Assembly (NCBI GenBank): GCA_035711845.1
Contig: DASTBU010000136.1
Coordinates: forward strand, 1 to 43,866
Reading direction: 5' to 3'
Source: Vicinamibacterales bacterium
GTDB taxonomy: Bacteria > Acidobacteriota > Vicinamibacteria > Vicinamibacterales > 2-12-FULL-66-21
Length of the DNA stretch: 43,866 bases
Part shown: piece by piece, positions 3,262 to 43,866 of the stretch
How the letters are laid out: the number at the start of each line of letters is the position of its first letter
How positions within the stretch are numbered: position 1 is the stretch's first letter
Position numbers and translations under genes: made by a program
The notes under the pieces: model-generated
Database searches by the model: none
Told to the model about the DNA's origin: nothing
Seen by the model: the letters and a program-made list of their open reading frames with translations, nothing else

Positions 3262-3294
3262 TGAAGGCTGAAGTAGGGAGCCTTCAGCCTTTCA
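3262..3294. terminator. Stem-loop TGAAGGCTGAAG-tagggag-CTTCAGCCTTT at the amidohydrolase-stop/hpt-start junction
   Basis: ~10-bp stem seen directly. It overlaps the stop codon of the upstream gene and lacks a U-tract. It has the same GAAGGCTGAAG unit as the array at 26853. Confidence 0.5.
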
Positions 3295-4680
3295 TCTGAC
3301 TGCCTCGCGTACCTTCGCTGCCCAGGCGCGCGCGTCGTCGAGCACCGCGCGCTCGTTCAACGTCTGCACGCGCCGATCGCGCATCACGAGCTGCCCATTC
3401 ACGACCATGCTCTGCACGTCGTCGCCACGCGTCACGTAGACGAGGTGCGACACCGGATCGTAGAGAGGGGTCTGGCGCGCGCCCGACATCGAGACCACGA
3501 TCAGATCCGCGCGCTTGCCCGCCTCGAGGGAGCCGATCTCCCTGTCGAGCCCAAGCGCGCGCGCGCCGTCGATCGTGGCCATTCGGAGGGCGGTGGACGC
3601 CGGCAGCGCACGCGGATCACCGCTCGTCAGCTTGTGCAGCAGCGCAGCCTGACGCATCGCCTCGAACATGTCCAGGTCGTTGTTGCTGGCGGCCCCGTCC
3701 GTGCCCAGGCCGACCGGTACCGATGCTTTTCGCAGATCCAGAACGGGTGCAGTCCCGCTCGCGAGCTTCATGTTGCTTTCGGGGTTGTGCGCAAGCCCCA
3801 CATGCCGTCGGGCAAGGATCCGGATATCGGCCGGGGTCAGCCAGACCCCGTGCGCGGCAATGGTGCGTGGGCCCCAGAAGCCAATCCGCTCGAGATACTG
3901 CACCGGCGTCGCCTTGTACCGCTCGCGGGCGATCTTCACCTCCTCGCGTGTTTCGGCCAGGTGGATGATGACGGGCGCGCGCTCCCGATCCGCAACCGCG
4001 CGAATGGCCTTCAGCGTCGCCGTGTCCAGCGTGTACATGGCGTGTGGGGCGATGGCCGGAACGATCAACTCGTCGTTCGCCCACGCGCGAAGGAACACGG
4101 ACGCACGCGCGATGCCCTCGCTCGGCGTCTTCGCGTCGGGGGACGGGAACTCGATGATGGTCTGGCCGAGCACGCCGCGGATGCCGGCGTCCTTCGTAAC
4201 CCTGGCGATCTCCTCCTCGAAGTAGTACATGTCCGCGTAAGTGGTCGTTCCGGACTGGATCATCTCCAGGACGGCCAGCCGCGTGCCCGCGCGGACGAAC
4301 TCGGGGCTGACGGTCCTGGCCTCGGCTGGAAAGATGTACTTCTGCAGCCAGTCCATCAGGGCCAGGTCGTCCGCCAGGCCACGGTAGAGCACCATCGGCG
4401 CATGTGTATGTGTGTTGATGAGGCCGGGAAGGACAACGGCGCCGGAGGCGTCGAGGGTATCGCGCCCGGTGAACTGCGACGCGATGGCGTCGGGGCTGCC
4501 GACGGCGACGATATCTCGGCCATCGACGGCAAGCGCCCCCGGGGAAAGGACCCGATTCGAGGGGTCGGCTGTGACGATCGACCCGCCAGTGACGACCAGC
4601 GACACCTCGCGAGGCGCTGACTGCCAGGCCGGCAGGACGAGTCCTGCGGCCGCGAGGGCCGCGCAGAGCCACCACAGCAT
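3292..4680 (-). CDS. Amidohydrolase-superfamily deaminase/chlorohydrolase (MTA/SAH-deaminase or guanine-deaminase-like), secreted
   Basis: Metal-binding LPGLINTHTHAPM motif and TRZ/ATZ-like core. Probable start is MLWWLCAALAAAGLVLPA (signal peptide) at 4680. A longer ORF reaches 4719. Confidence 0.75.
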   Translation of the reverse strand: MLWWLCAALAAAGLVLPAWQSAPREVSLVVTGGSIVTADPSNRVLSPGALAVDGRDIVAVGSPDAIASQFTGRDTLDASGAVVLPGLINTHTHAPMVLYRGLADDLALMDWLQKYIFPAEARTVSPEFVRAGTRLAVLEMIQSGTTTYADMYYFEEEIARVTKDAGIRGVLGQTIIEFPSPDAKTPSEGIARASVFLRAWANDELIVPAIAPHAMYTLDTATLKAIRAVADRERAPVIIHLAETREEVKIARERYKATPVQYLERIGFWGPRTIAAHGVWLTPADIRILARRHVGLAHNPESNMKLASGTAPVLDLRKASVPVGLGTDGAASNNDLDMFEAMRQAALLHKLTSGDPRALPASTALRMATIDGARALGLDREIGSLEAGKRADLIVVSMSGARQTPLYDPVSHLVYVTRGDDVQSMVVNGQLVMRDRRVQTLNERAVLDDARAWAAKVREAVR

Positions 4681-4741
4681 TTGAGGGGAAAATTCTATCA
4701 GCCTTCTCCCTTTTCCCATTTCCGTTTTGTATAGTGAAGCC

Positions 4742-5368: not shown

Positions 5369-5536
5369 CGTAATTCGTAGTTCGTGCTCCGTGGTTCGTA
5401 GTCCGTGGTCCGTAGTCTGTGAGACGTCGCTGGCACGTCGCACGAGCACACGTCGCACGTCGCACGTGACAAGCAGCACATCGCACATCACACGTAGCAC
5501 GTCGCACGTGACAAGTGGCAAGTGGCATGTGGCACC
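5369..5536. repeat. 24 consecutive phase-locked heptads (CGTNGTN x7, then TCGCACG/TGACAAG-like x~16)
   Basis: Hand-phased from 5369. Every 7-mer boundary is preserved across 168 bp. Lies between the upp stop and the citryl-CoA-lyase-like start. Confidence 0.9.
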
Positions 5537-5553: not shown

Positions 5554-6414
5554 ATGAAAGACCAAATGGTCAGAGACAGGCTCACACCGCGCGAGGAACG
5601 ACGCAGCCAGAAGCGCCTGGCCGAAGACGGGTGGCGGACCGCCTTGACCTGTATCGAGCCCAACAAAATCCTCGTCCGCGGGTTTCCGCTCGACGAGATG
5701 ATGGGCCGCCTGACATTCGGCGAGGCGATTTACCTGCTGCTGGTCGGAGAGGTCCCCTCACCGGCGATTGGCAGCCTCATGGAGGCGATGCTGGTCTCGT
5801 TCATCGATCACGGCGCGACGCCGCCATCGACGATGGCGGCGAGGAATACGGCAACGACGGGCGCGCCGCTGCGGGCGTGCGTGGCCGCAGGCGTGCTCGG
5901 GTTCGGCCGCTATCACGGCGGCGACATCCAAACCTGCATGACCTTTCTGGACGCCGGGCTCGACCTGGTGCGCGGCGAGGCGAGCTACCACGACGCGGCA
6001 ACAGAGATAGTGAGGCGATGCGAGGAAGCCGACGAGATACCGCCCGGCTTCGGGCACCGCTTCCATACACGCGATCCGCGGGCGGCGCGACTCTTCCAGA
6101 TGGCGCTCGAGCTGGAAGTCGAAGGGCAGCACATCCAGATGATCCGCGCCGTGGAGGTCGTCCTGAGCGAACGGCCGGACAGCCAGGGCCGGGTGCTGCC
6201 GGTGAACATCGACGGGGCCATCGCCGCAGTCTGCGGGGATCTGGGGCTGGCGCCGTCGATCGCGGAGGCGCTCTTCATCATCTCGCGCGTCCCCGGGATC
6301 ACTGCCCATGCCGACGAGGAGCGGGCGCGCCATGGACCGATGCGCCAGATCGATCCCAAGGAGCATCGCTACGACGGACCGTCCCAACGCCGGCTGCCGG
6401 AACGGCGCAAGTGA
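5554..6414 (+). CDS. Citrate synthase-family small protein (citryl-CoA lyase-like)
   Basis: 286 aa matching the C-terminal catalytic half of citrate synthase (GFGHRFHTRDPRA, VLPVNIDGAIAAV). Confidence 0.65.
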   Translation: MKDQMVRDRLTPREERRSQKRLAEDGWRTALTCIEPNKILVRGFPLDEMMGRLTFGEAIYLLLVGEVPSPAIGSLMEAMLVSFIDHGATPPSTMAARNTATTGAPLRACVAAGVLGFGRYHGGDIQTCMTFLDAGLDLVRGEASYHDAATEIVRRCEEADEIPPGFGHRFHTRDPRAARLFQMALELEVEGQHIQMIRAVEVVLSERPDSQGRVLPVNIDGAIAAVCGDLGLAPSIAEALFIISRVPGITAHADEERARHGPMRQIDPKEHRYDGPSQRRLPERRK

Positions 6415-6475
6415 CCGCCTCGCTGCGTTGCGGTGGTTGGAGGGCTGAGATAAACTGAGGTTCCGCACACGAGGT

Positions 6476-6550
6476 TGGGCGCTTGGCTCAGCGGTAGAGC
6501 ATCGCCTTCACACGGCGGGGGTCAGTGGTTCGAATCCACTAGCGCCCACC
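6476..6550 (+). tRNA. tRNA-Val (anticodon CAC)
   Basis: Cloverleaf folded by hand: acceptor GGGCGCT/AGCGCCC, D-arm GCTC-AGCGGTA-GAGC, anticodon stem TCGCC/GGCGG with loop TTCACAC, T-arm AGTGG-TTCGAATC-CCACT, encoded CCA. Confidence 0.85.
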
Positions 6551-6717
6551 AACCACAAACCCTAGTTCACCAGGGGCTTACCAGCAGCAGGCGCGTCGCC
6601 GTTGCACGCAGGGGGATGCTGAGTCGCCGGCTCGGTTGCAACGGGTTTGCAACGGCGGGCGGGGTTCGTCCCGAACCGACGCATGCTCTCCTCCAAGCCG
6701 ACCAGCGTGGCGTTGAG

Positions 6718-6900
6718 GCTATGTCGAAATCTGCTTCAGGTCGGCGCGACCGAGCGTCGCTTGCACGTGGTGCACCGGCCAACCCGGCCTCGATCAGGCG
6801 CGAGCCGGCCTCCGTGCCGCAGGTCGTGGAAGTGCAGGTCGATCGCGCGCAGCGCACGGCCAAGCGCCGAAGTGGGAGCCGGGCGGCAAAGCTGTCGGCC
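6718..6900 (-). pseudogene. Tyrosine-recombinase (phage integrase) C-terminal remnant, frameshifted
   Basis: The minus strand reads RAIDLHFHDLRH, then EAGSRLIEAG, then PVHHVQATLGRADLKQIST in three different frames, resembling the integrase HxLRH / VQ..LGH boxes. The remnant ends 168 bp from the tRNA-Val 3' end. Confidence 0.4.
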
Positions 6901-7215
6901 GCGATCAGCGTGCCGTCCGGATGTCCCGGCGCGGCCGTCCCGTCAGCGAGCGCCCGTTGCGGCTGGCGCTGGTTGTCGAGGAACGAAGTCTTGCCGCCAA
7001 GCTGCCGTGGTCACGGCTTCGGCGCGAATGGAACGAGAGCCACAGACATGGACGTACGCCAGCGATCGGGCCTTCGCGAGCGATGCGCGGGCGGCTGTGA
7101 GCCGCGTGCCTCGCTACCGCTGAAGGGTTGTTCGTCGGGGCAATACGATCACGGAGGCTCTCTCGTCGGACATATCCTGAACAAGCCGGCGCGCGACTCT
7201 CAAGCGCGCAGGCGC

Positions 7216-7680
7216 TTACTGCTTCTCGTAAAACGACACCGCGTCGGCCGGCTTCCCTGTCTTGTCAGGCCCCTTGGCAGTCGTCGTCCGCGTCTTGCCA
7301 TCCGCCGAAACGACGATCGTATGAGTCGTCGTCGGTTTTCCCTGGTACTTGTTCACGATCCTTATTGTGCGTGCGTCGACGCGCGTCAGCGCCACGGTGT
7401 CGCCGTACGGATTCTCCCCTTTCACGGGAGCGTCCTTGCCGTCGAAGTTCGCTGTGAATTCCCAGTGATTCTTCGTGCCGTCTGCGCCCACGAGGTCCAC
7501 CATGAACTTGATCCCCTCACCGACCGCCTCGATTGTGGTTGCTCCGCTCTTGAACGGCGCTTTGGATTTGTCGACGTTCAGTTTCCAGGTGCCGACCAGT
7601 GGATCGGTGGACTGAGCGAGAACGATCCCGGTGGATACCCCGATGAGGATGACCGCCGCAAGGAAGCGTTTCGTGGTCAT
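7216..7680 (-). CDS. Secreted lipocalin-like domain protein (unknown function)
   Basis: Signal peptide MTTKRFLAAVILIGVSTGIVLAQS, then a GTWKL... beta-rich domain. GC content is visibly lower than the surrounding DNA. Confidence 0.65.
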   Translation of the reverse strand: MTTKRFLAAVILIGVSTGIVLAQSTDPLVGTWKLNVDKSKAPFKSGATTIEAVGEGIKFMVDLVGADGTKNHWEFTANFDGKDAPVKGENPYGDTVALTRVDARTIRIVNKYQGKPTTTHTIVVSADGKTRTTTAKGPDKTGKPADAVSFYEKQ

Positions 7681-9542: not shown

Positions 9543-10115
9543 TCAGGACGCTCCCTTCGCCTGCGCCGCGAGGAGGCTCAGGATCCGGGCGTACCGTTGG
9601 TCGGCCTCCGAGAACGCCTTCATGTACTCGTCCTCGCTGAGCTTCGCCTTCCGCCAATCCCCGTCGAAGGCCAGCTGGCTGCTACCGTTCTCGAACGTAT
9701 CGGCCGCCTGATCGCCATCAGGCCTGGCCACGAGCCCATCGCAGCTCTGATCGATGATGAAGACTTTCGACCCGGCGACCGAGGCCGAGTTGAGGTCGAT
9801 GTAGATATCCCGATAGTTCTTGCTGCTCATCTTCGCAACGAGCAGCGGCGGCGCCGCGTACTTCGCGGATACGACCAGTAGCTGCGCGCCAGGGAAATAG
9901 AGAGCGGCCACGAAGGTGGTGGGATCGGACGGATCGACAGCCGCGATGCTGTCCAGCTTCGCCGCGTCCAACGCGGCCGCCAGTTCCTTGGCAGCCGCGA
10001 CCGACTTGGCTTCCTGGGCCTGGACGGGCGCCAGCATCCCAAACATCAGCGCAACAGAAGCGGCGACGAGAGGTGTCAGCGCAGGGCGGACAGAAAACCG
10101 GAACTTGGGCTTCAT
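9543..10115 (-). CDS. Secreted hypothetical protein
   Basis: MKPKFRFSVRPALTPLVAASVALMFGMLAPVQA signal peptide followed by an Ala-rich soluble domain. Confidence 0.6.
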   Translation of the reverse strand: MKPKFRFSVRPALTPLVAASVALMFGMLAPVQAQEAKSVAAAKELAAALDAAKLDSIAAVDPSDPTTFVAALYFPGAQLLVVSAKYAAPPLLVAKMSSKNYRDIYIDLNSASVAGSKVFIIDQSCDGLVARPDGDQAADTFENGSSQLAFDGDWRKAKLSEDEYMKAFSEADQRYARILSLLAAQAKGAS

Positions 10116-12071: not shown

Positions 12072-12929
12072 TCAGGAAAGGAAAGCCTCGATATAGGGAT
12101 CCGCCGTGACCATCTCGCGCAGCTCGGAGGCATTCCCCTCGAAGGCGATTCCGCCGTCCCGCAGCATGATGAACTCTCCCTCGTCCGCCTTGGGACCGGT
12201 GGCGCGCTCGAAGAGGATGTCGTTTCCCTGTCGGACGGCCGTGTGTTCGGCGATGTAGAACGCGTCGCGCAGCTGGTGGGTCACGACGATGGAGCTGACG
12301 CCTTCGAGGTCGCGGAGCTTGATGATCTCCTCGTCCACCGTGAGGGCGGTGATGGGATCGAGGCCCGTGGTCGGCTCGTCGTACAACAGGATTCGCGGCT
12401 TGGCCGCCATGGCGCGGGCGATCGCCACCCGCCGCCGCTGCCCCCCCGACAGCTCCGACGGCATCCTGTCGATGAATTCCCCGAGCCCGATGAACCCCAG
12501 GACTTCCCGCACCCGTTGGTTCGCTTTCTCGATGGGCCAGTGCAGCTCCTCGAACAGCTTGTACCCGACGTTTTGGCGGACCGTCAGCGAGTCGAACAGG
12601 GCGCCCTCCTGGAAGACCATCCCGAGATCCGCGCGCACGGCCATGAGCTGATTCTCCGTCATGTTGTCCACTTGCTCGCCATTGACGAAGATCCGGCCGC
12701 CATCAGGCTTCAGCAACCCGAGGATCAATCGCAGAATCGTGGATTTGCCGGCCCCGCTCGCGCCGAGAAAGACCTTCGTGTGTCCGGTCTGGAGCGTGAA
12801 GCTGATGTTGCTCAGGATCACCTTTTCGTCGAACGCCAGGGACACATGGTCGAACACGATGATCGGGCCGCCGTGTGCCAGCGCTTCCTCGAGCAGGGGC
12901 GGGCGTGGGGTAGGCTGGAGAATCGCCAT
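12072..12929 (-). CDS. mlaF: ABC transporter ATP-binding protein MlaF
   Basis: Walker A GASGAGKST, signature LSGGQRRRVAIARAM, Walker B ILLYDEPTTGLD. The start overlaps the mlaE stop (ATGA). Confidence 0.85.
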   Translation of the reverse strand: MAILQPTPRPPLLEEALAHGGPIIVFDHVSLAFDEKVILSNISFTLQTGHTKVFLGASGAGKSTILRLILGLLKPDGGRIFVNGEQVDNMTENQLMAVRADLGMVFQEGALFDSLTVRQNVGYKLFEELHWPIEKANQRVREVLGFIGLGEFIDRMPSELSGGQRRRVAIARAMAAKPRILLYDEPTTGLDPITALTVDEEIIKLRDLEGVSSIVVTHQLRDAFYIAEHTAVRQGNDILFERATGPKADEGEFIMLRDGGIAFEGNASELREMVTADPYIEAFLS

Positions 12930-21255: not shown

Positions 21256-22416
21256 TCAGCCGAGCGCCTGATCCAGATCCGCGATCAGATCCTCAGGGTC
21301 TTCCAACCCGATCGACAGGCGCGCCATGCTCGTCGTGACCCCTGCCCGCGCGAGCTGCTCCTCGGAGTGCCCCCACTGCGAGGTCAGCACGGGCAGGCTG
21401 CAGAGGCTCTCCACGCCGCCGAGGCTTGCCGCGCGCGTGAACACGCGCAGCCGATCGAAGAACCGCGCGGCCCCTTCGTAGCCACCGCCGACGTCGACAC
21501 ACACCATGCCGCCGAAGCCACGCATCTGCTTCGACGCGACGGCGTAGTCGGGGTGCGACTCCAGCCCCGGATAGTAGACGGTGCGTACCCGGGCGTCGCG
21601 CTCGAGCCAGCGCGCGACCGCCATCGCGTTCCTGTTGTGACGGTCCATACGGACCGCCAGCGTCTTCAGGCCGCGGCCGAGCGCATAGGCAGCATACGGG
21701 TCCAGCACGGCGCCTGCCAGCTTGCGGACCTTCAGCATCCGTTCGATGAGGCGTGCCGGTCCGGCCAGCACGCCGGCCGTCACGTCACTATGGCCATTGA
21801 GGTATTTGGTCGCGCTGTGCATCACGAGGTCGATCCCCAGCGCAACCGGCTGCTGGTTCAACGGGCTGGCAAACGTGTTGTCGATCACCGAGACGACGCC
21901 GCGCGCGCGGCAGGCAGCTGCCACACGGGCAATGTCGATGCAGCGCAAGGTTGGGTTGATCGGGGACTCGAACCACACCACTTTCGTCCCGTCCGAGATC
22001 AGGGCCTCCGGGCGTGCCAGCTCGTCGAGCGACGCGAACCGCGACCGCACGCCGAAGGCCGACAACAGGTCGACGATGAGGTGCAACGTCCCGCCGTAGA
22101 TCGCAGAACTGCAGACGATCTCGTCACCGGAGCCGACGAGCGCCAGCAGCGCCGTCGTCGTCGCCGCCTGACCGCTCGAGAGCACCAGGGCCGCCTCGGC
22201 GCCCTCGAGCGCGGCCAGCTTCGTTTCCACTTCGACGACGGTCGGATTGGCGTAGCGCGTGTACAGGAACTTTGCCGAGCGGCCTTCGTTGTAGGCCAGT
22301 ACCTCGGCCGCGCTTTCGAACACGAACGTCGTCGTTTCGTAGATCGGGGTGGTCAGCGGCGCGGCGTCGTCGGCGACACCCGCCACGCGATGAATGAGCT
22401 CTGTTGCTGCACGCAT
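21256..22416 (-). CDS. PLP-dependent trans-sulfuration enzyme (cystathionine gamma-synthase/beta-lyase/Met gamma-lyase family)
   Basis: PLP-Lys region DLVMHSATKYLNGHSDV and an N-terminal PIYETTTF motif. The ATG at 22414-22416 is immediately followed by the repeat array. Confidence 0.85.
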   Translation of the reverse strand: MRAATELIHRVAGVADDAAPLTTPIYETTTFVFESAAEVLAYNEGRSAKFLYTRYANPTVVEVETKLAALEGAEAALVLSSGQAATTTALLALVGSGDEIVCSSAIYGGTLHLIVDLLSAFGVRSRFASLDELARPEALISDGTKVVWFESPINPTLRCIDIARVAAACRARGVVSVIDNTFASPLNQQPVALGIDLVMHSATKYLNGHSDVTAGVLAGPARLIERMLKVRKLAGAVLDPYAAYALGRGLKTLAVRMDRHNRNAMAVARWLERDARVRTVYYPGLESHPDYAVASKQMRGFGGMVCVDVGGGYEGAARFFDRLRVFTRAASLGGVESLCSLPVLTSQWGHSEEQLARAGVTTSMARLSIGLEDPEDLIADLDQALG

Positions 22417-22420
22417 ATTT

Positions 22421-22797
22421 GTCCCTGGTCGCTCAGTCCCTGGTCGCTGGTCCCTTGGTCCTCGGTCCCTGGTCGCTGGTCGCTGGTCCCTTGGTCCTGG
22501 GTCCCTGGTCTCGGGTACCTTGGTCCTCGGTCGCTCATCCCGTGTCCTTTGGTCCTCAGTCTTGGGACCGACCCTGGTCGGAATACTAACGCATCCCCGG
22601 AGGTCGACCGAGTCCAAGCCAAGAGAGGACGCACGGTAAGGGAGGAGGCAAGGGACTCAGGACGAAGGGACCCAGGACGAAGGGACCAACGACTGAGGGA
22701 CCGACCAGGGACCGAGGGACCCGGGACCGAGGGACCCGGGACTGAGGGACCCGGGACTGAGGGACCCGGGACTAAGGGACCAAGGGACCAAGGGACT
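22421..22797. repeat. Composite inverted tandem-repeat element (GGTCCCT/GGTCGCT units on the left arm, GGGACCGAGGGACCC units on the right arm, ~100-bp unique centre)
   Basis: Direct reading: the left arm is the reverse complement of the right-arm unit. The patatin-like gene's stop codon lies in the right arm, and the metB-like ATG abuts the left arm. Confidence 0.9.
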
Positions 22798-24199
22798 GCT
22801 CGCTCTCCCCCACGACCGGCTCGATGAAGAGGCGGTAGGCATCTTCGTATCCGCGATCGACCAGCTCGGCGAGCGTGTGGGCGCGGTCCGAACGCTCGTC
22901 GTAGACGCCGGCGAAATCGAGCGGACCCAACGGATTGTGCAGGGGACGAATGACGTACAGCCCGGCAAAACGGCCGGCCGTGTGCTCCACGACGTCGCGG
23001 AGTGCGGCGGCCTCGAAGCTCCCGAGCGATTCTGCTGCGCGGCCGCGGATGTCGGCGCGTCCGGCGCTCAGCTCGTGCGGCCCGCCGGGCGGCGGCACTG
23101 GTGCGACGATGATGATCTGCTCGACGCCGGCGGCGGCCACTTCTTCCAGCAACCGGAGAAGGCCGCCGGGCCGATCGCACAGGCGGTGTGTTTCGCCCCG
23201 CCAGGGACCTTCGGGCGCAAAGGTCACCAGGTGCGGATCGCACGCGACGGGCACGGCGAGCGCCGCCGTGAGCGCATCCAGCGCATGCTCGCGAGCCACG
23301 CCGCTGAGATCGAAGGCTTCGAGCTGGCGGACTCCTCCCACCGGCCCGGCTCGCGTCGGGAACCGGTTCCGGTGGCTTCCGGAAAGAAGGGCAAAGACCA
23401 GGTCACGTCGCGCGTCCAGATCGTGAACCGTGATCAGCAGCTCCCTGAAGCCGGGCTGTCCAAGGTTCTCCGACAGCAGCTCCAGATACTTGCGCGCCAG
23501 ATCTGGCGAGGACGGCGCGGCGAGCGGAGCCGCGCCCCGAATCAAGTTCCAGAGCTCCGACGAACTTCGCTCGACGAGCGAGGAGGCGGAGAAGGGCCCG
23601 CCGAAAATCCGACCCACGAGCCCATGCTGCGCCCGGCGCTTCGAGGTCCGGCCCGTCAGCGCCGGCAACGCGCCGGCGACAGCGGCGGCGGCCGACAGGA
23701 GCACGGCGAGCAGCGCCAGCCGTGGGATGATCGTCGGGAGCACAGCCGGGGCGAAGAGCACCTCCATCCAGCGGCTGTATCCCGCGCTCACCTGTGAGCC
23801 GATCCCTCCGAGGCCGATCAGCGTCAGGAGGAGCCCCGCCATGGCGGCCAGCACCGAGAGGGCGAGCAGGGCAAGAGGCACCGCAAGGACGGCCAGCCCA
23901 GCGACGAGCGCCCAGGCGGCGACCCGCAGCGAGCGGCGCCACCCGTAGAACCGAGCGGCGGAGGCGCTGCGCCAGATCCCGGTCTCTTCCCACAGCCGGG
24001 CGCTTCCATCGATCGCCGCGTACATCGCCGCGATGACCCCCACGCCGCGGGCCGCCACGAGGTCGATGCGAATACCCGCCTCGTGCAGCGCGCGCAGCAC
24101 GCCCGCATGGTAGGCGCCGCCCGTGCCGGAGCCGGTGAGCACGAGCGCCGTGCGCAGCCGGGTGGAGTACTGGCGGTCGGGTGAATCGGGTGTGATCAC
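22772..24199 (-). CDS. Patatin-like phospholipase-family protein, apparently catalytically degenerate, with a central TM segment
   Basis: The patatin block LVLTGSGTGGAYHAGVLRAL...IDLVAARGVGVIAAMYA aligns to GGGxRG...GxSxG, but the Ser and Arg positions are replaced. GTG start. Confidence 0.65.
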   Translation of the reverse strand: MITPDSPDRQYSTRLRTALVLTGSGTGGAYHAGVLRALHEAGIRIDLVAARGVGVIAAMYAAIDGSARLWEETGIWRSASAARFYGWRRSLRVAAWALVAGLAVLAVPLALLALSVLAAMAGLLLTLIGLGGIGSQVSAGYSRWMEVLFAPAVLPTIIPRLALLAVLLSAAAAVAGALPALTGRTSKRRAQHGLVGRIFGGPFSASSLVERSSSELWNLIRGAAPLAAPSSPDLARKYLELLSENLGQPGFRELLITVHDLDARRDLVFALLSGSHRNRFPTRAGPVGGVRQLEAFDLSGVAREHALDALTAALAVPVACDPHLVTFAPEGPWRGETHRLCDRPGGLLRLLEEVAAAGVEQIIIVAPVPPPGGPHELSAGRADIRGRAAESLGSFEAAALRDVVEHTAGRFAGLYVIRPLHNPLGPLDFAGVYDERSDRAHTLAELVDRGYEDAYRLFIEPVVGESEQSLGPLVP

Positions 24200-25549: not shown

Positions 25550-26875
25550 ATGTCTCTTTTCGACGACCCGGAACCGGAAGCAACCATCCCCGCCACATCC
25601 CCGCTGGCCGAACGCATGCGGCCGCGCACGCTCGACGAATTCGTGGGACAGGATGCGCTGCTCGCTCCCGGACGGCCGTTGCGCCAGGCGATCGAGCAGG
25701 ACCGCCTGCAGTCGCTGATTCTCTGGGGTCCTCCAGGAACCGGCAAGACAACGCTCGCCCGTCTCGTCGCCAGGGTCACCCGCGCCCAGTTCACCTCGTT
25801 CAGCGCGGTGCTCTCGGGCATCAAGGAGATCCGGACCGTGATGGCCGAAGCGGAGGAGGCGCGGCGTCGGCGCGGACGGAGGACCCTGCTCTTCGTGGAC
25901 GAGATCCACCGCTTCAACAAGGCGCAACAGGACGCGTTCCTGCCGCGTGTCGAGGCGGGCGACATCGTGCTGATCGGCGCGACCACGGAGAACCCGTCCT
26001 TCGAGGTGAACTCCGCGCTGTTGTCGCGGTCCAAGGTGTACGTGCTTCAGCCACTCGGTCCGGAGGCGATCGTGACCATCCTGCGCCGGGCCCTCTCGGA
26101 CGCCGAGCGGGGACTCGGAGCGATGAACCTCGGCGTCGAGGAAGAAGCGCTCGCGGCCATCGCGCGCTATGCCAACGGGGACGCTCGCGTTGCGCTGAAC
26201 CTCATCGAGATGGCGTCGGGGGCGGCCGCGGGCTCCGGGCGGATCGACGCGGCGATGATTGCGGACCTGGCGCAGAACCGGGCGCTGCTGTACGACAAGT
26301 CCGGCGAGGAACACTACAACCTGATCTCGGCGCTGCACAAATCCATGCGTAACAGCGATCCGGACGCCTCCGTGTACTGGCTGGCTCGCATGCTCGAAGC
26401 CGGCGAGGACCCGCTCTATGTCGCCAGGCGCCTGGTGAGGTTCGCCTCGGAAGACGTCGGGAACGCCGACCCCCAGGCGCTGGCGATCGCGGTCGCGGCC
26501 AAGGACGCCGTTCACTTCATCGGCATGCCCGAAGGCAATACCGCACTGGCCCAGGCCGTCATCTACCTGGCGACCACACCGAAGAGCAACGCGGTGTACA
26601 CCGCGTACCTGCAGGCAGCGGAGGCGGCCGCCAGCGAGATTGCCGAACCCGTGCCGCTGCACCTGCGGAATGCCCCTACGCGCCTGATGAAACAGCTCGA
26701 ATACGGAAAGGGGTACAAGTACGCCCACGACGAACCGGAGGGTATAGCGGAAATGGAATGCCTGCCCCCTGCGCACCGCGGGCGGAAGTTCTACCGGCCC
26801 ACGAACCGGGGCCGCGAGGCAGCGGTCAGAAAGTGGATGGAGGAGAAAGTTAGAAGGCTGAAGGCTGAAGGCTGA
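25550..26875 (+). CDS. rarA: Replication-associated recombination protein A (AAA+ ATPase)
   Basis: Walker A GPPGTGKTT, Walker B LLFVDEIHRFNK, and the MgsA C-terminal domain. The last residues (LKAEG) are encoded by the GAAGGCT array. Confidence 0.9.
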   Translation: MSLFDDPEPEATIPATSPLAERMRPRTLDEFVGQDALLAPGRPLRQAIEQDRLQSLILWGPPGTGKTTLARLVARVTRAQFTSFSAVLSGIKEIRTVMAEAEEARRRRGRRTLLFVDEIHRFNKAQQDAFLPRVEAGDIVLIGATTENPSFEVNSALLSRSKVYVLQPLGPEAIVTILRRALSDAERGLGAMNLGVEEEALAAIARYANGDARVALNLIEMASGAAAGSGRIDAAMIADLAQNRALLYDKSGEEHYNLISALHKSMRNSDPDASVYWLARMLEAGEDPLYVARRLVRFASEDVGNADPQALAIAVAAKDAVHFIGMPEGNTALAQAVIYLATTPKSNAVYTAYLQAAEAAASEIAEPVPLHLRNAPTRLMKQLEYGKGYKYAHDEPEGIAEMECLPPAHRGRKFYRPTNRGREAAVRKWMEEKVRRLKAEG

Positions 26876-26929
26876 AGGCTGAAGGAACTTCAGCGTTCCA
26901 CCTTCAGCCTTCCACCTCAGCTTTGAAGG
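26853..26929. repeat. (GAAGGCT)x4.5 tandem array followed by its inverted complement (multi-hairpin) between convergent rarA and protease genes
   Basis: GAAGGCTGAAGGCTGAAGGCTGAAGGCTGAAGG, then AACTTCAGCGTTCCACCTTCAGCCTTCCACCTCAGC. Both gene stop codons lie inside it. Confidence 0.85.
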
Positions 26930-32121: not shown

Positions 32122-32261
32122 CAGTTACCAGTTTCCAGTTTCCAGTTCCCAGTTTCCAGTTTCCAGTTTCCAGTTCTCAGTTTCCAGTTCCCAGTTTCCA
32201 GTTCGCCCCCTCAGCTGCCAGCTCCACTAACCGGCAACTGGGAACTGGAAACTGAGAACTG
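32122..32261. repeat. 12 tandem CAGTTTC/CAGTTCC heptads, 30-bp centre, then inverted (AACTGGG AACTGGA AACTGAG) units
   Basis: Hand-phased. Occupies the whole corA-stop to mutL-start gap and begins 8 bp from the mutL ATG. Confidence 0.9.
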
Positions 32262-39864: not shown

Positions 39865-39871
39865 GGGAGTG

Positions 39872-40075
39872 CTGAGTTCTGAATGCTGAATGCTGAATGC
39901 TGAATGCTGAATGCCAAAAATGCCAACTGCTGCCGAATCGCTCGCCCTTTGCTGAACGTCATTACACCCCACATTCAGCACTCAGCATTCAACATTCAGC
40001 ATTCCCTTGAATCGCTTGCCTCCTGCTGAACGTCATCCCAATTCAGCATTCAGCATTCGACATTCAGCATTCATT
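39872..40075. repeat. (TGAATGC)x5 - spacer - inverted (ATTCAGC)x4 - duplicated spacer - inverted x4
   Basis: Direct reading. The 30-bp spacer GAATCGCT(C/T)GCC..TGCTGAACGTCAT occurs twice. Fills the whole mgtE-stop to recO-start gap. Confidence 0.9.
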
Positions 40076-43547: not shown

Positions 43548-43552
43548 CGATC

Positions 43553-43866
43553 GGTCCCTCGTCCCTCGATCCCATGGTCCCTGGTCCCTCGGTCCCTCGG
43601 TCCTGGGTCCCTGGTCCGGGTCCCGGGGTCCCTGGTCCGGGTCCGGGGTCCCTGGTCCGGGTCCCGGGTCCCTGGTCCGGTCGCGGGGTCCCTGGTCCGG
43701 TCGCGGGGTCCCTGGTCCCTCGGTCCTTCAATCTCGGGTCCCTCACGAACGGGGTGCGACTCGAGACCGGGGACTCAGGAGCAGCGACCCCGGACCGAGG
43801 GACCCCGGACCGAGGGACCCCGGACCGAGGGACCCCGGACCGAGGGACCCCAGACCGAGGGACCCC
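43553..43866. repeat. Second copy of the GGTCCCT / CCGGACCGAGGGACC composite inverted repeat family (runs off the window end)
   Basis: Left arm GGTCCCTGGTCCGGGTCCCGG repeats; centre containing GGGGACTCAGGAGCAGCGACC; right arm (CCGGACCGAGGGACC)x5. Same unit and same GGGACTCAGGA centre motif as the 22.4-kb locus. Confidence 0.9.

Follow-up and report, generated by a model that had tools for sequence, protein, structure and literature searches.

A heptanucleotide-array hairpin upstream of a metB-like gene in a Vicinamibacterales bacterium is probably a hairpin microsatellite of a lineage-wide class

We analysed a whole 43,866-bp MAG contig from a Vicinamibacterales bacterium (hereafter the window), the end of which falls inside a second repeat array (element F, below). 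Between a patatin-like gene and a metB-like gene, both on the minus strand, lies a 377-bp element (element B, 22421–22797), a long imperfect inverted repeat formed by a left array and a right array around a centre of ~88 nt. Element B occupies the whole spacer, from the patatin-like stop codon to 4 nt short of the metB-like ATG. The locus contains the following features.

21256–22416, minus strand: downstream gene, a Cys/Met-metabolism PLP-dependent enzyme (metB/metC-like; Pfam PF01053 Cys_Met_Meta_PP, E = 2e-127)
22422–22426, minus strand: AGGGA of the last unit, which precedes the AUG by 5 nt; a weak Shine-Dalgarno (SD) candidate, paired in the predicted hairpin at its base
22421–22561, minus strand: left array, the 3′ arm on the sense RNA, with purine-rich AGGGACC, AGCGACC and AGGACC units (direct-repeat family D2)
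22562–22649, minus strand: centre (hairpin loop region), non-repetitive, as read from the sequence
22578–22618, minus strand: conserved block in the centre, sense strand CTTGGAC..GTC..GGATGCGtTAGTATtcCGA, with a −10-like TAsTAT hexamer
22650–22797, minus strand: right array, the 5′ arm on the sense RNA, with pyrimidine-rich GGUCCCU-type units and 8-nt variants
22774–22772, minus strand: TAG stop codon of the patatin-like gene, from the translation, ~23 nt inside the 5′ arm
22772–24199, minus strand: upstream gene, a patatin-like phospholipase (Pfam PF01734 Patatin, E = 2e-7)

The left array, which makes up the last ~140 nt ahead of the metB-like start codon, reads as GGTCCCT/GGTCGCT units on the plus strand and has a TRF period of 7 with 14.6 copies; it also contains higher-order units of 15, 29 and 36 nt, the period of 36 at a 94% match. 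The right array (AGGGACC units on the plus strand) has a TRF period of 15 (7 + 8) with 9.5 copies, is built of 15-nt super-units GGGACCCGGGACYGA, and contains a direct-repeat family (D1) of eight copies. Element B thus consists of head-to-tail copies of a 7-nt unit, as do heptanucleotide long simple sequence repeats (SSRs) and STRR-type repeats. In addition, there are 40 inverted-repeat pairs in the element, the best being 28 nt at 93%, verifying that the inverted repeat with complementary arms seen in the original prediction is real. Allowing one mismatch, we count 22 occurrences of the pattern GGGACCNNGGGAC in the window, where 2.1 would be expected; 21 of them fall inside 22421–22797 or 43553–43866.

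The junctions with the flanking genes are also as predicted. The metB-like ATG is at 22416–22414 and the array starts at 22421, leaving a gap of 4 nt; the leader reads ...GGGACCAGCGACCAGGGACAAAUAUG; and the patatin-like TAG is located inside the array, such that the final eight codons of the gene (SLGPLVP*) are made of array sequence. The synteny of the patatin-like and metB-like genes is kept in relatives. Most contigs found through the exact metB-like and Era proteins end within the arrays; the population variants that proved informative among these matches were only L177, L180, L181 and L182, and element B is present independently in L180, L181 and L182. Both the same-species contig L180 and the 88%-identity L182 have the same TTAG variant unit and patatin-like tail as the window. 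The centre differs from that of L180 by three substitutions and is mostly unalignable with that of L182, the block at 22578–22618 being the only part of it conserved between the window and L180 on one side and L182 on the other. This block may, from its sequence, be an internal promoter or a binding site; were it a promoter, the two arms would be on different RNAs. A scan for the σ70 promoter consensus around element B found none.

The minus-strand RNA 22810–22405 is predicted to fold into one long imperfect hairpin with an MFE of −236.2 kcal/mol, against −178.5 ± 6.3 kcal/mol for 100 dinucleotide shuffles (z = −9.2). The right array pairs with 22421–22561 in the MFE fold, so the pairing of the arms that had been proposed stands, while the duplex, with ~140 predicted pairs, is longer than the ~100 bp claimed. 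A heptamer array thereby supplies one side of a long predicted hairpin immediately 5′ of a gene, as in Haemophilus influenzae hmw1A. Across 14 co-directional hairpins, G·U pairs show no sense-strand bias (108 sense, 102 antisense), and in each of the three variants of element B it is the antisense strand that folds better; without a strand bias in MFE or G·U pairs in the 14 hairpins, there is no evidence of RNA-level selection on the sense strand. The sequence 3′ of the hairpin is AAAUAUG, with no U-tract. A scan of 22000–23200 for intrinsic terminators, that is, a G+C-rich stem-loop plus a U-tract, gave 0 sites, and an Rfam scan of the whole window at gathering thresholds returned a tRNA only, with no family at element B.

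The window carries at least six hairpin elements (A–F), with five different 7-nt units over six loci in 44 kb, and all six are intergenic. The other five are as follows.

Element A, 5374–5534, plus strand: CGTAGTC/CGTGGTC arrays followed by GCACGTC arrays, complementary only in part
Element C, 26853–26921, no strand assigned: GAAGGCT (4.7 copies) against opposed CTTCAGC/CTTCCAC
Element D, 32122–32261, minus strand: plus-strand CAGTTTC array (11.7 copies) against a GAAACTG/AACTGGG array (3.7 copies)
Element E, 39867–40073, minus strand: GAATGCT arrays (5′ arm module, two copies) against an opposed GCATTCA array, between the mgtE stop codon and recO
Element F, 43551–43866, minus strand: GGTCCCT/AGGGACC unit as in element B, ending ~4 nt before the era ATG (43547) and truncated by the contig end

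Element A lies between two plus-strand genes, its end 19 nt upstream of an ATG with a GAGG of its own. Element C lies between the convergent mgsA (plus) and trypsin-like (minus) genes, with both stop codons at or inside its arms, and the matching junction of L182 has the same unit. Element D lies between the corA stop codon and the mutL ATG (32113), and the GCATTCA array of element E ends 2 nt ahead of the recO ATG (39864). The distances from array end to start codon are 4 nt at B, 8 nt at D, 2 nt at E and ~4 nt at F, and stop codons lie at or within the arms of B, C and F. A complete copy of element F, in L177, is ~750 nt long and extends from the corC stop codon to era. The purine-rich arm is the one next to the start codon at B, D and F and weakly at A, with the reverse at E in two lineages; we do not claim a polarity rule, since the independent loci are too few. 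Elements A–F have the 7-nt period and the inverted layout in common but no sequence, and therefore do not make up a family of diverged copies in the sense of a miniature transposon (MITE).

Comparison of orthologous spacers reveals that the unit turns over. The patatin–metB spacer of L182 (88% identity) has GGTCCCT arrays, while at 74–77% identity the spacers have CTTCCAG/CTGGAAG (L002 and L007), CAGCTAT/AGCTGAG (L008) or a direct array only (L004); AAGTCTG and CTCAACT are also found among the relatives, and L001 and some metagenome relatives have no array. In element E, the unit has shifted in both arms together, from CTGAATG in the window to CTGAAGG in L178, and the difference between the window and L174 is exactly one 7-nt unit. 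The arms of element B differ by blocks of ~15 nt and ~29 nt among the window, L180 and L181. Repeat number is thus polymorphic within the species at B and E, as at hmw1A, with assembly error possible for the long arrays: short-read contigs from other samples break within both the B and F arrays, and copy numbers of long arrays may therefore be mis-assembled. Element F is missing in the same-species L174, in which the corC–era spacer is 30 nt and Era is 99% identical, and in relatives at 80% identity the corC–era and mgtE–recO spacers are 10–26 nt. The absence of F from a same-species genome and from these relatives indicates that such elements are dispensable.

The arrays in the window are at period 7 only, and the same period dominates the lineage. 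Vicinamibacterales loci (313 kb) contain 54 period-7 arrays (173 per Mb) and eight arrays for all other periods from 4 to 12 together; control loci (1.58 Mb) contain 22 arrays per Mb, which makes the lineage density ~8-fold higher. A genome-wide period-7 excess, mostly in non-coding DNA, is also a mark of STRR-type repeats. From relatives we collected 32 heptamer unit types, 11 of which contain CTGA (5% expected), an excess that hints at a sequence-specific factor beyond simple slippage.

Element B is one of many fast-changing heptamer hairpins in the gene spacers of a soil acidobacterium. In the Vicinamibacterales class to which it belongs, tandem 7-nt units together with their reverse complements take up the spacers of co-directional or convergent gene pairs, the unit being specific to the locus. 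We conclude that element B is probably (at about 0.6) a hairpin microsatellite of this lineage-wide class, composed of opposed heptamer arrays, and not a sequence-specific regulator dedicated to the metB-like gene. The best reading of such a hairpin microsatellite is a self-propagating repeat of the STRR or long-SSR kind.

Cyanobacterial heptamer repeats are known as STRR sequences. Long SSRs and STRRs have in common with the arrays described here tandem 7-nt units, an intergenic location, a period-7 excess and copy-number variation among close relatives. The arrays here differ in being opposed pairs that form one long hairpin, in a unit that changes from locus to locus (five units at six loci) where STRRs have one or a few consensus heptamers per genome, and in their host, an acidobacterium with 65% G+C. 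Heptamer SSRs are over-represented in bacteria, with slippage proposed as the cause (PMC4692102); for the general 7-nt SSR excess of Mrazek et al. 2007 and for the Calothrix heptamers we follow the accounts given in PMC4692102 and PMC4679880. In Xanthomonas and Nostoc, GGGNATC and GGGGAYT repeats likewise are G3-containing heptamers in the spacers of aligned ORFs near stop and start codons, with occasional inverted pairs and with junctions shared by related species that vary in length and sequence (PMC4692102). Those genomes have one consensus each and prefer four units, whereas GGGACCN is found at two of the six loci here, the arrays here are much longer, with arms of up to ~350 nt, and their G-rich strand is oriented to genes in the way opposite to that preferred in Xanthomonas. 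No function was found for the Xanthomonas and Nostoc repeats (PMC4692102).

TAACTGA repeats of marine Beggiatoaceae, cyanobacteria and some Bacteroidetes also end a few nt from start codons, overlap the expected ribosome-binding site and have strain indels in 7-nt steps, and their CTGA core is common to a third of the unit types here; they are short (2–6 copies) and direct, with one indirect set only, in BOGUAY, and one heptamer dominates (PMC4679880). The P6b stem-loop of the Nostoc tRNA-Leu(UAA) group I intron is a hairpin paired through two 7-nt motifs, varies in length by repeat gain and loss, and forms the same structure from TDNGATT or NNTGAGT; it is, unlike the elements here, a peripheral ribozyme element of 50–126 nt at a single locus and not intergenic (PMC4476775). 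The mechanistic precedent is the (ATCTTTC)n 5′UTR of hmw1A, which forms a long hairpin cleaved by RNase III and in which repeat-number change needs the hairpin, RNase III and transcription, all three (PMC12721329). As in element B, a heptamer SSR of polymorphic repeat number lies just upstream of a gene and forms one hairpin arm. The hmw1A leader is transcribed (PMC12721329), whereas transcription and RNase III cleavage of element B are proposed by analogy. Furthermore, the opposite arm of hmw1A is a non-repetitive G-rich stretch where both arms here are arrays, and hmw1A is one contingency locus that lies behind a promoter of its own, where the elements here lie between two genes at dozens of loci.

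Judging from the comparative data, the arms of a small spacer hairpin would grow and shrink by replication slippage in 7-nt steps, which in element B would be combined into steps of 7 + 8 = 15 nt and of 29 nt. Complementarity would be held at the DNA level, by arm-to-arm template switching or shared unit ancestry, and not by selection on a single RNA strand. The arm lengths of element B in the window and L180 do not track each other, which weakens the case for strict arm-to-arm copying, with assembly error possible. The arrays would be long-lived at a locus, their sequence turning over, and could be lost cleanly. Arrays persist at the same junctions over 88–90% and even ~75% protein identity, which may be due to selection for function and not just to mutational inertia.

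On a read-through transcript from the patatin-like to the metB-like gene, with co-transcription of the arms assumed, the arms would form a duplex of ~140 bp that places the patatin-like stop codon and the metB-like AUG together at one helix base, with the weak AGGGA buried. For the metB-like gene to be translated from this transcript, the helix base would have to be opened, potentially by a ribosome terminating at the TAG in the 5′ arm, which would amount to translational coupling. Alternatively, RNase III could cut the long dsRNA, by analogy with the hmw1A 5′UTR; the window shows no rnc gene. Copy-number change would tune the effect on metB and not switch it, and any such effect, be it sequestration of the ribosome-binding site, ribosome coupling or RNase III cleavage, would be a side-effect of the array.

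The original prediction held instead that a start-proximal arm made of AGGGA motifs pairs with the upstream arm to form a switch dedicated to the metB-like gene, acting on translation or processing. AGGGAC precedes the start codon by 5 nt in the window and by 7 nt in L182 and is thus a candidate weak SD (AGGG against anti-SD UCCU), so that the last unit can retain the role claimed for it; GAGGGA is positioned 9 nt ahead of the era AUG in element F, and several relatives keep a canonical GGAGG/GAGGAG 3′ of the array at the metB-like gene, which makes SD-dependent initiation plausible in this order. The AGGGA of element B, paired in the MFE fold at −5, matches the anti-SD at four positions only, one of them a G·U pair, and no competing structure and no ligand sensor was identified. 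As an organising principle, the SD run fails, because sister elements placed alike relative to start codons (A, D and E, of which D and E directly abut them) use GCACGTC, CAGTTTC and TGCTGAA units without SD character, and because orthologous spacers use unrelated units or none. Together with the dispensability of element F, the lack of a sense-strand G·U bias, the better folding of the antisense strand and the failure to match an Rfam family, a σ70 promoter or a terminator, this makes a dedicated switch quite unlikely. We regard as unlikely, too, a function at the 3′ end of the upstream mRNA in the manner of REP/BIME elements, either as a terminator without a U-tract, two-way at convergent junctions, or as a barrier to 3′-to-5′ exonucleases. 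The elements follow stop codons between co-directional or convergent genes (the convergent cases being C, L008 10363, L022 7154, L100 4421 and L102), with none at a clear divergent junction, a distribution like that of REPs and Xanthomonas heptamers, and REPs are likewise hairpin-forming, abundant and located in spacers after genes (PMC2817692). REPs, however, are short palindromes conserved genome-wide and linked to RAYT transposases, whereas the six elements here are tandem heptamers that share no sequence and do not form a short palindrome repeated in hundreds of copies. Element B lacks a U-tract and an intrinsic-terminator consensus, and E and F are inserted in junctions that measure 10–30 nt in relatives and resemble compact operons (phoH–ybeY–corC–era and mgtE–recO), where termination would shut off era and other essential genes downstream.

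It had also been proposed that the elements at 22421–22797 and 43553–43866 are diverged copies of one family with a shared unit and centre motif. The unit is indeed shared, with 14 of 15 positions identical in the 15-nt super-unit, and element F is polymorphic for presence within the species, as would suit a MITE. The centre motif is weak: the best local match, 12/14 where the centre meets the 3′ arm, is equalled in 21 of 300 shuffles and is not significant. Apart from the arrays we see no terminal inverted repeat and no target-site duplication, also when the L174 empty site is compared with the L177 filled site of F; B and F keep the same junctions in the 88–90% lineage with different centres; the remaining four elements have unrelated units; and the 15-mer GGGACCGAGGGACCC has no exact match among the 184 loci compared. 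A mobile element is accordingly very improbable, on a search for copies with shared internal sequence, terminal inverted repeats and duplications that covered one contig of the genome. The least probable of the alternatives is that the (GGGACCN)n arm folds into a G-quadruplex (G4) that regulates transcription or translation, as suggested by analogy with the Xanthomonas and Nostoc heptamers. Canonical G4 motifs (at least four G3 tracts with 1–7-nt loops), as motifs, are present at 22708–22794 on the plus strand and at 43556–43596 on the minus strand, and similar G-rich heptamer repeats form G4 in vitro (PMC4692102). The motif of element B, however, belongs to the strand that serves as template for the flanking genes and is thus absent from the mRNA, whose own arm has no canonical G4 motif; a complementary C-rich arm within 300 nt would compete by duplex formation; and the unit, GGGACCN, does not fit the GGGNATC or GGGGAYT consensus. 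Because A, C, D and E have no G-runs, G4 formation is unable to explain the class.

To our knowledge, neither the reason for seven nor a general function has been established for bacterial heptamer repeats. Read as a class of hairpin microsatellites, the Vicinamibacterales arrays provide an unusually clean natural experiment, with a fixed period, free sequence and complementary array pairs, in which the same junctions can be traced through unit turnover, concerted change of the arms, single-unit polymorphism and clean loss. This combination allows period-dependent explanations (slippage, hairpin geometry) to be separated from sequence-dependent ones (binding proteins, G4), and the hmw1A precedent of RNase III and transcription-dependent repeat dynamics becomes testable at many loci together.

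A bolder reading, which we hold to be unlikely, is that Vicinamibacterales have a period-locked, largely sequence-independent system in which a dedicated or strongly biased process would rebuild most hairpins at operon junctions and gene ends from locus-specific heptamers in 7-nt steps, with the CTGA/CTGR core, also found in the TAACTGA repeats of Beggiatoaceae and cyanobacteria, marking a conserved trans-acting heptamer reader and the arrays serving as tunable post-transcriptional insulators or couplers. If true, this would be an uncharacterised, widespread layer of gene-expression control. Proteins that could act as a heptamer reader include a Csp/S1-type single-strand binder or a nuclease. 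On the practical side, short-read assemblies of abundant soil Acidobacteriota fragment at these arrays, which also give rise to spurious ORF calls.

Element B, which lies between the patatin-like and metB-like genes, consists of two opposed heptamer arrays separated by a non-repetitive centre. The junction contains the following features (array units as + strand sequence):

21256–22416, minus strand: metB-like gene, Cys/Met-metabolism PLP enzyme (PF01053, E = 2e-127)
22421–22561: left array of B, GGTCCCT/GGTCGCT units; TRF period 7, 14.6 copies, with a 36-nt higher-order unit (94% match)
22562–22649: centre of B, non-repetitive
22650–22797: right array of B, AGGGACC units and 8-nt variants; TRF period 15, 9.5 copies
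22772–24199, minus strand: patatin-like gene (Patatin domain), upstream of B

A repeat search joins the two arrays by 40 inverted pairs, bearing out the original prediction of a 377-bp inverted repeat at 22421–22797. The left arm had been placed 4 nt from the metB-like start codon and the patatin-like stop codon inside the right arm, and both placements hold: the ATG occupies 22416–22414 with the array starting at 22421, and the TAG (22774–22772) lies within the array, so that the last eight patatin-like codons (SLGPLVP*) are repeat sequence. In addition, the minus-strand transcript, expected to pair arm with arm, is predicted to fold into a single long imperfect hairpin of ~140 base pairs (sense RNA 22810–22405), with an MFE of −236.2 kcal/mol versus −178.5 ± 6.3 in dinucleotide shuffles (z = −9.2). 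The SLGPLVP* tail, built on GGTCCCT units (22775–22797), is identical in the 88%-identity orthologue and different in 75%-identity relatives.

The window contains at least six elements with a common layout, in which an array is followed by a unique centre and an array of reverse-complement units, and the units differ. Period 7 is the only period that forms arrays in the window (TRF and period scan).

5374–5534: element A, CGTAGTC / GCACGTC, between two + strand genes
22421–22797: element B, GGTCCCT / AGGGACC, between the patatin-like and metB-like genes
26853–26921: element C, GAAGGCT / CTTCAGC, between convergent mgsA and a trypsin-like gene
32122–32261: element D, CAGTTTC / GAAACTG, between corA and mutL
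39867–40073: element E, GAATGCT / GCATTCA, between mgtE and recO
43551–43866 (window end): element F, GGTCCCT / AGGGACC, unit as in B, upstream of era; cut by the window end

Four of the five further elements use units unrelated to that of B. The distance from the array end to the next start codon is 4 nt in B, 8 nt in D, 2 nt in E and about 4 nt in F, and in B, C and F the first units reach or contain the upstream stop codon; because such arrays run from stop codon to start codon, the elements fill the spacer completely. The mgsA-like coding end (...RRLKAEG*) is built on GAAGGCT units, its TGA lying within the array (26853–26875). Element E carries an internal ~70-nt duplication (39915–40040) of a module made of array and then GACGTTCAGCA..GGCRAGCGATTC, which sets two 5′-arm modules opposite one 3′ arm.

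The closest relatives of the metB-like protein in a protein search are Vicinamibacterales/Acidobacteriota MAGs at 74–77% identity, and patatin–metB synteny is kept across relatives. At about 100% identity (contigs L180 and L181), the B centre is nearly identical, and variation in copy number and in higher-order units is found in the arms. L182, at 88% identity, retains the GGTCCCT/AGGGACC unit, and the sole part of the centre that is kept is a ~40-nt block (22578–22618; about 9800–9840 in L182). At 74–77% identity, the spacer holds CTTCCAG/CTGGAAG (L002, L007), CAGCTAT/AGCTGAG (L008), a direct GCTGAAA array (L004) or no array (L001). Direct arrays occur in a few metagenome relatives at 61–71% identity (AAGTCTG; CTCAACT; 28 GACTGAT copies opposed by CAGTC units); most have a short spacer, and in several a canonical GGAGG or GAGGAG precedes the ATG. 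In L102 (1338–1546), a metB orthologue is followed by a nested element, in which an outer inverted pair of ATCGGTG / CACCGAT units encloses a direct 12.7-copy GATTGCC array.

Elements C, D, E and F occupy matching junctions in the 88–90% lineage (L178/L182, one 49.7-kb contig), in which the E unit is CTGAAGG versus CTGAATG in the window, a concerted one-base change in both arms. In 80%-identity relatives, the corC–era and mgtE–recO spacers are 10–26 nt long and array-free, and heptamer arrays are found at other junctions of those genomes.

Same-species contigs differ at F. In L177 (Era 98% identical; 6474–7226), F measures ~750 nt; its 5′ arm opens with the corC TAG, and the element stops 5 nt short of the era ATG. 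In L174, a 4.7-Mb long-read contig (Era 99% identical), the corC–era spacer is 30 nt (9971–10000), roughly the first 8 plus the last 27 nt of F. Since the 90% lineage carries F, the short spacer would most simply represent a clean loss of the whole hairpin. In element E, L174 departs from the window by exactly one CATTCAG unit, and L081 shows a 12-nt centre indel; the window and L174 share the 12-nt segment TGGGGTGTAATG, which L081 and L082 lack. Nearly all short-read/Logan contigs with an identical Era or metB-like protein (L081–L093, L175, L176) end inside arrays, 23–245 nt upstream of the ATG, which shows that in this abundant soil lineage assemblies break at the repeats and that copy numbers of long arrays are uncertain. 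The window itself, a complete 43,866-bp MAG contig, ends inside the F array. The source annotation of L177 places a 288-aa ORF without a Pfam match across the F arrays (6334–7200, minus strand), a gene call that is very likely spurious and composed of repeat sequence; ORFs of the same kind occur in the window at 22394–22639 (+), 22404–22589 (+) and 22657–22968 (−).

We counted arrays of at least 3 copies and periods 4–12 in loci fetched by the same queries.

Period-7 arrays in Vicinamibacterales and control loci
Vicinamibacterales loci, 313 kb: 54 period-7 arrays (173 per Mb); 8 arrays of all other periods 4–12
Other-phyla loci, 1.58 Mb: 35 period-7 arrays (22 per Mb); 42 arrays of all other periods 4–12

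Period-7 density is about eight-fold higher in Vicinamibacterales. Period 7 is also the commonest period in the controls, consistent with a report that heptamer SSRs are generally in excess (PMC4692102). The unit sequences are non-random: among 32 unit types (window, L002–L008, L022, L094–L104, L178, L183, L184), read cyclically on either strand, CTGA occurs in 11 versus 5% expected (p about 3e-7) and CTGR in 15 versus 12.6% expected (p about 2e-6), some of the loci being orthologous and non-independent. The CTGA core is common to the TAACTGA repeats of Beggiatoaceae and cyanobacteria (PMC4679880).

By the features tested, this class of elements is not a REP, a MITE, an intrinsic terminator or an Rfam family. 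B has no Rfam match (the only one in the window is a tRNA gene at 6477–6548 (+), RF00005, 67.4 bits), and scans found no intrinsic terminator and no σ70 consensus near it. The ~40-nt centre block reads CTTGGAC..GTC..GGATGCGnTAsTAT..CGA on the sense strand (also CTTGGAC..GGATGCGtTAGTAT) and holds a −10-like hexamer, with TTGGAC 22–23 nt upstream, too far for a standard σ70 promoter. Promoter activity of the block, if it exists, would often separate the arms onto two RNAs, and the leader formed by the 3′ arm on its own would be purine-rich and unpaired. B and F had been read as plausibly diverged copies of one family; they do have their repeat unit in common, but the supposed common centre motif matches at only 12/14 positions, a score reached or exceeded in 21/300 shuffles. 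This non-significant match, together with no evident target-site duplication at the empty F site, speaks against a mobile element.

Maintenance as a sense RNA predicts mismatches biased to G·U on the sense strand. No such bias is seen across 14 co-directional hairpins (108 sense versus 102 antisense); therefore, either arm complementarity resides at the DNA level or the arms are not old enough for such a bias to have built up. B antisense folds better than sense in all three variants. The purine-rich arm lies toward the start codon in B, D and F, but not in E, and so we claim no polarity rule. A canonical G4 motif at B lies on the + strand only (22708–22794), which is the template strand, and F has a second on its sense strand; G-runs are absent from the other elements.

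Element B is most likely a hairpin microsatellite, in which the two arms of a small spacer hairpin would each have expanded through slippage in 7-nt steps, remaining complementary because one descended from, or was corrected against, the other. This reading accounts for a constant period combined with free sequence, the inverted layout, a unit changing in concert in both arms, single-unit polymorphism, clean loss and the lack of strand bias. Growth inside 10–30-nt spacers would explain why arrays extend from stop codons up to start codons, and hairpin geometry, by keeping the flanks adjacent, why insertions of 350–750 nt are tolerated in seemingly compact operons.

The arrangement described by the original prediction is confirmed, and its interpretation as a translational or processing switch is supported in part. 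On a read-through transcript, the duplex would bring the metB AUG and the stop codon of the patatin-like gene together at one helix base and pair the sole SD-like unit, AGGGA, 5 nt upstream of the AUG. Initiation could then depend on melting of the helix base by a ribosome that terminates about 23 nt into the 5′ arm, or alternatively on cleavage of the long dsRNA; any effect of B on metB-like expression is inferred. The interest lies mainly in the lineage-wide phenomenon and less in the metB-like leader itself.

In period, location and variability the elements fit the heptanucleotide long-SSR/STRR kind, but STRR, GGGNATC and TAACTGA repeats have one consensus unit per genome, which the present class does not. 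Helices made of heptamers also occur in the Nostoc trnL P6b hairpin, with two 7-nt motifs (PMC4476775), and in the leader of H. influenzae hmw1A. The latter is the only precedent that has been dissected by experiment: one arm of its long hairpin is (ATCTTTC)n, RNase III cleaves the hairpin, and repeat-number change requires the hairpin, RNase III and transcription (PMC12721329). In Nostoc, several different heptamers adjoin start codons, with regulatory effects reported (bioRxiv 10.1101/2022.06.06.494920). In our literature search, of incomplete coverage, no account of elements of this kind in Acidobacteriota came up.

Two further features of the window lie apart from the six elements. A canonical G4 motif (12479–12514, minus strand; four G3 tracts, loops ≤7 nt) apparently falls in a coding region. 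A degenerate short CCTTTTC-type array (4702–4728, 3.9 copies), at an apparently divergent junction, overlaps the region where the minus-strand gene 3292–4719 is predicted to start and is the sole array-like feature that does not follow a stop codon.
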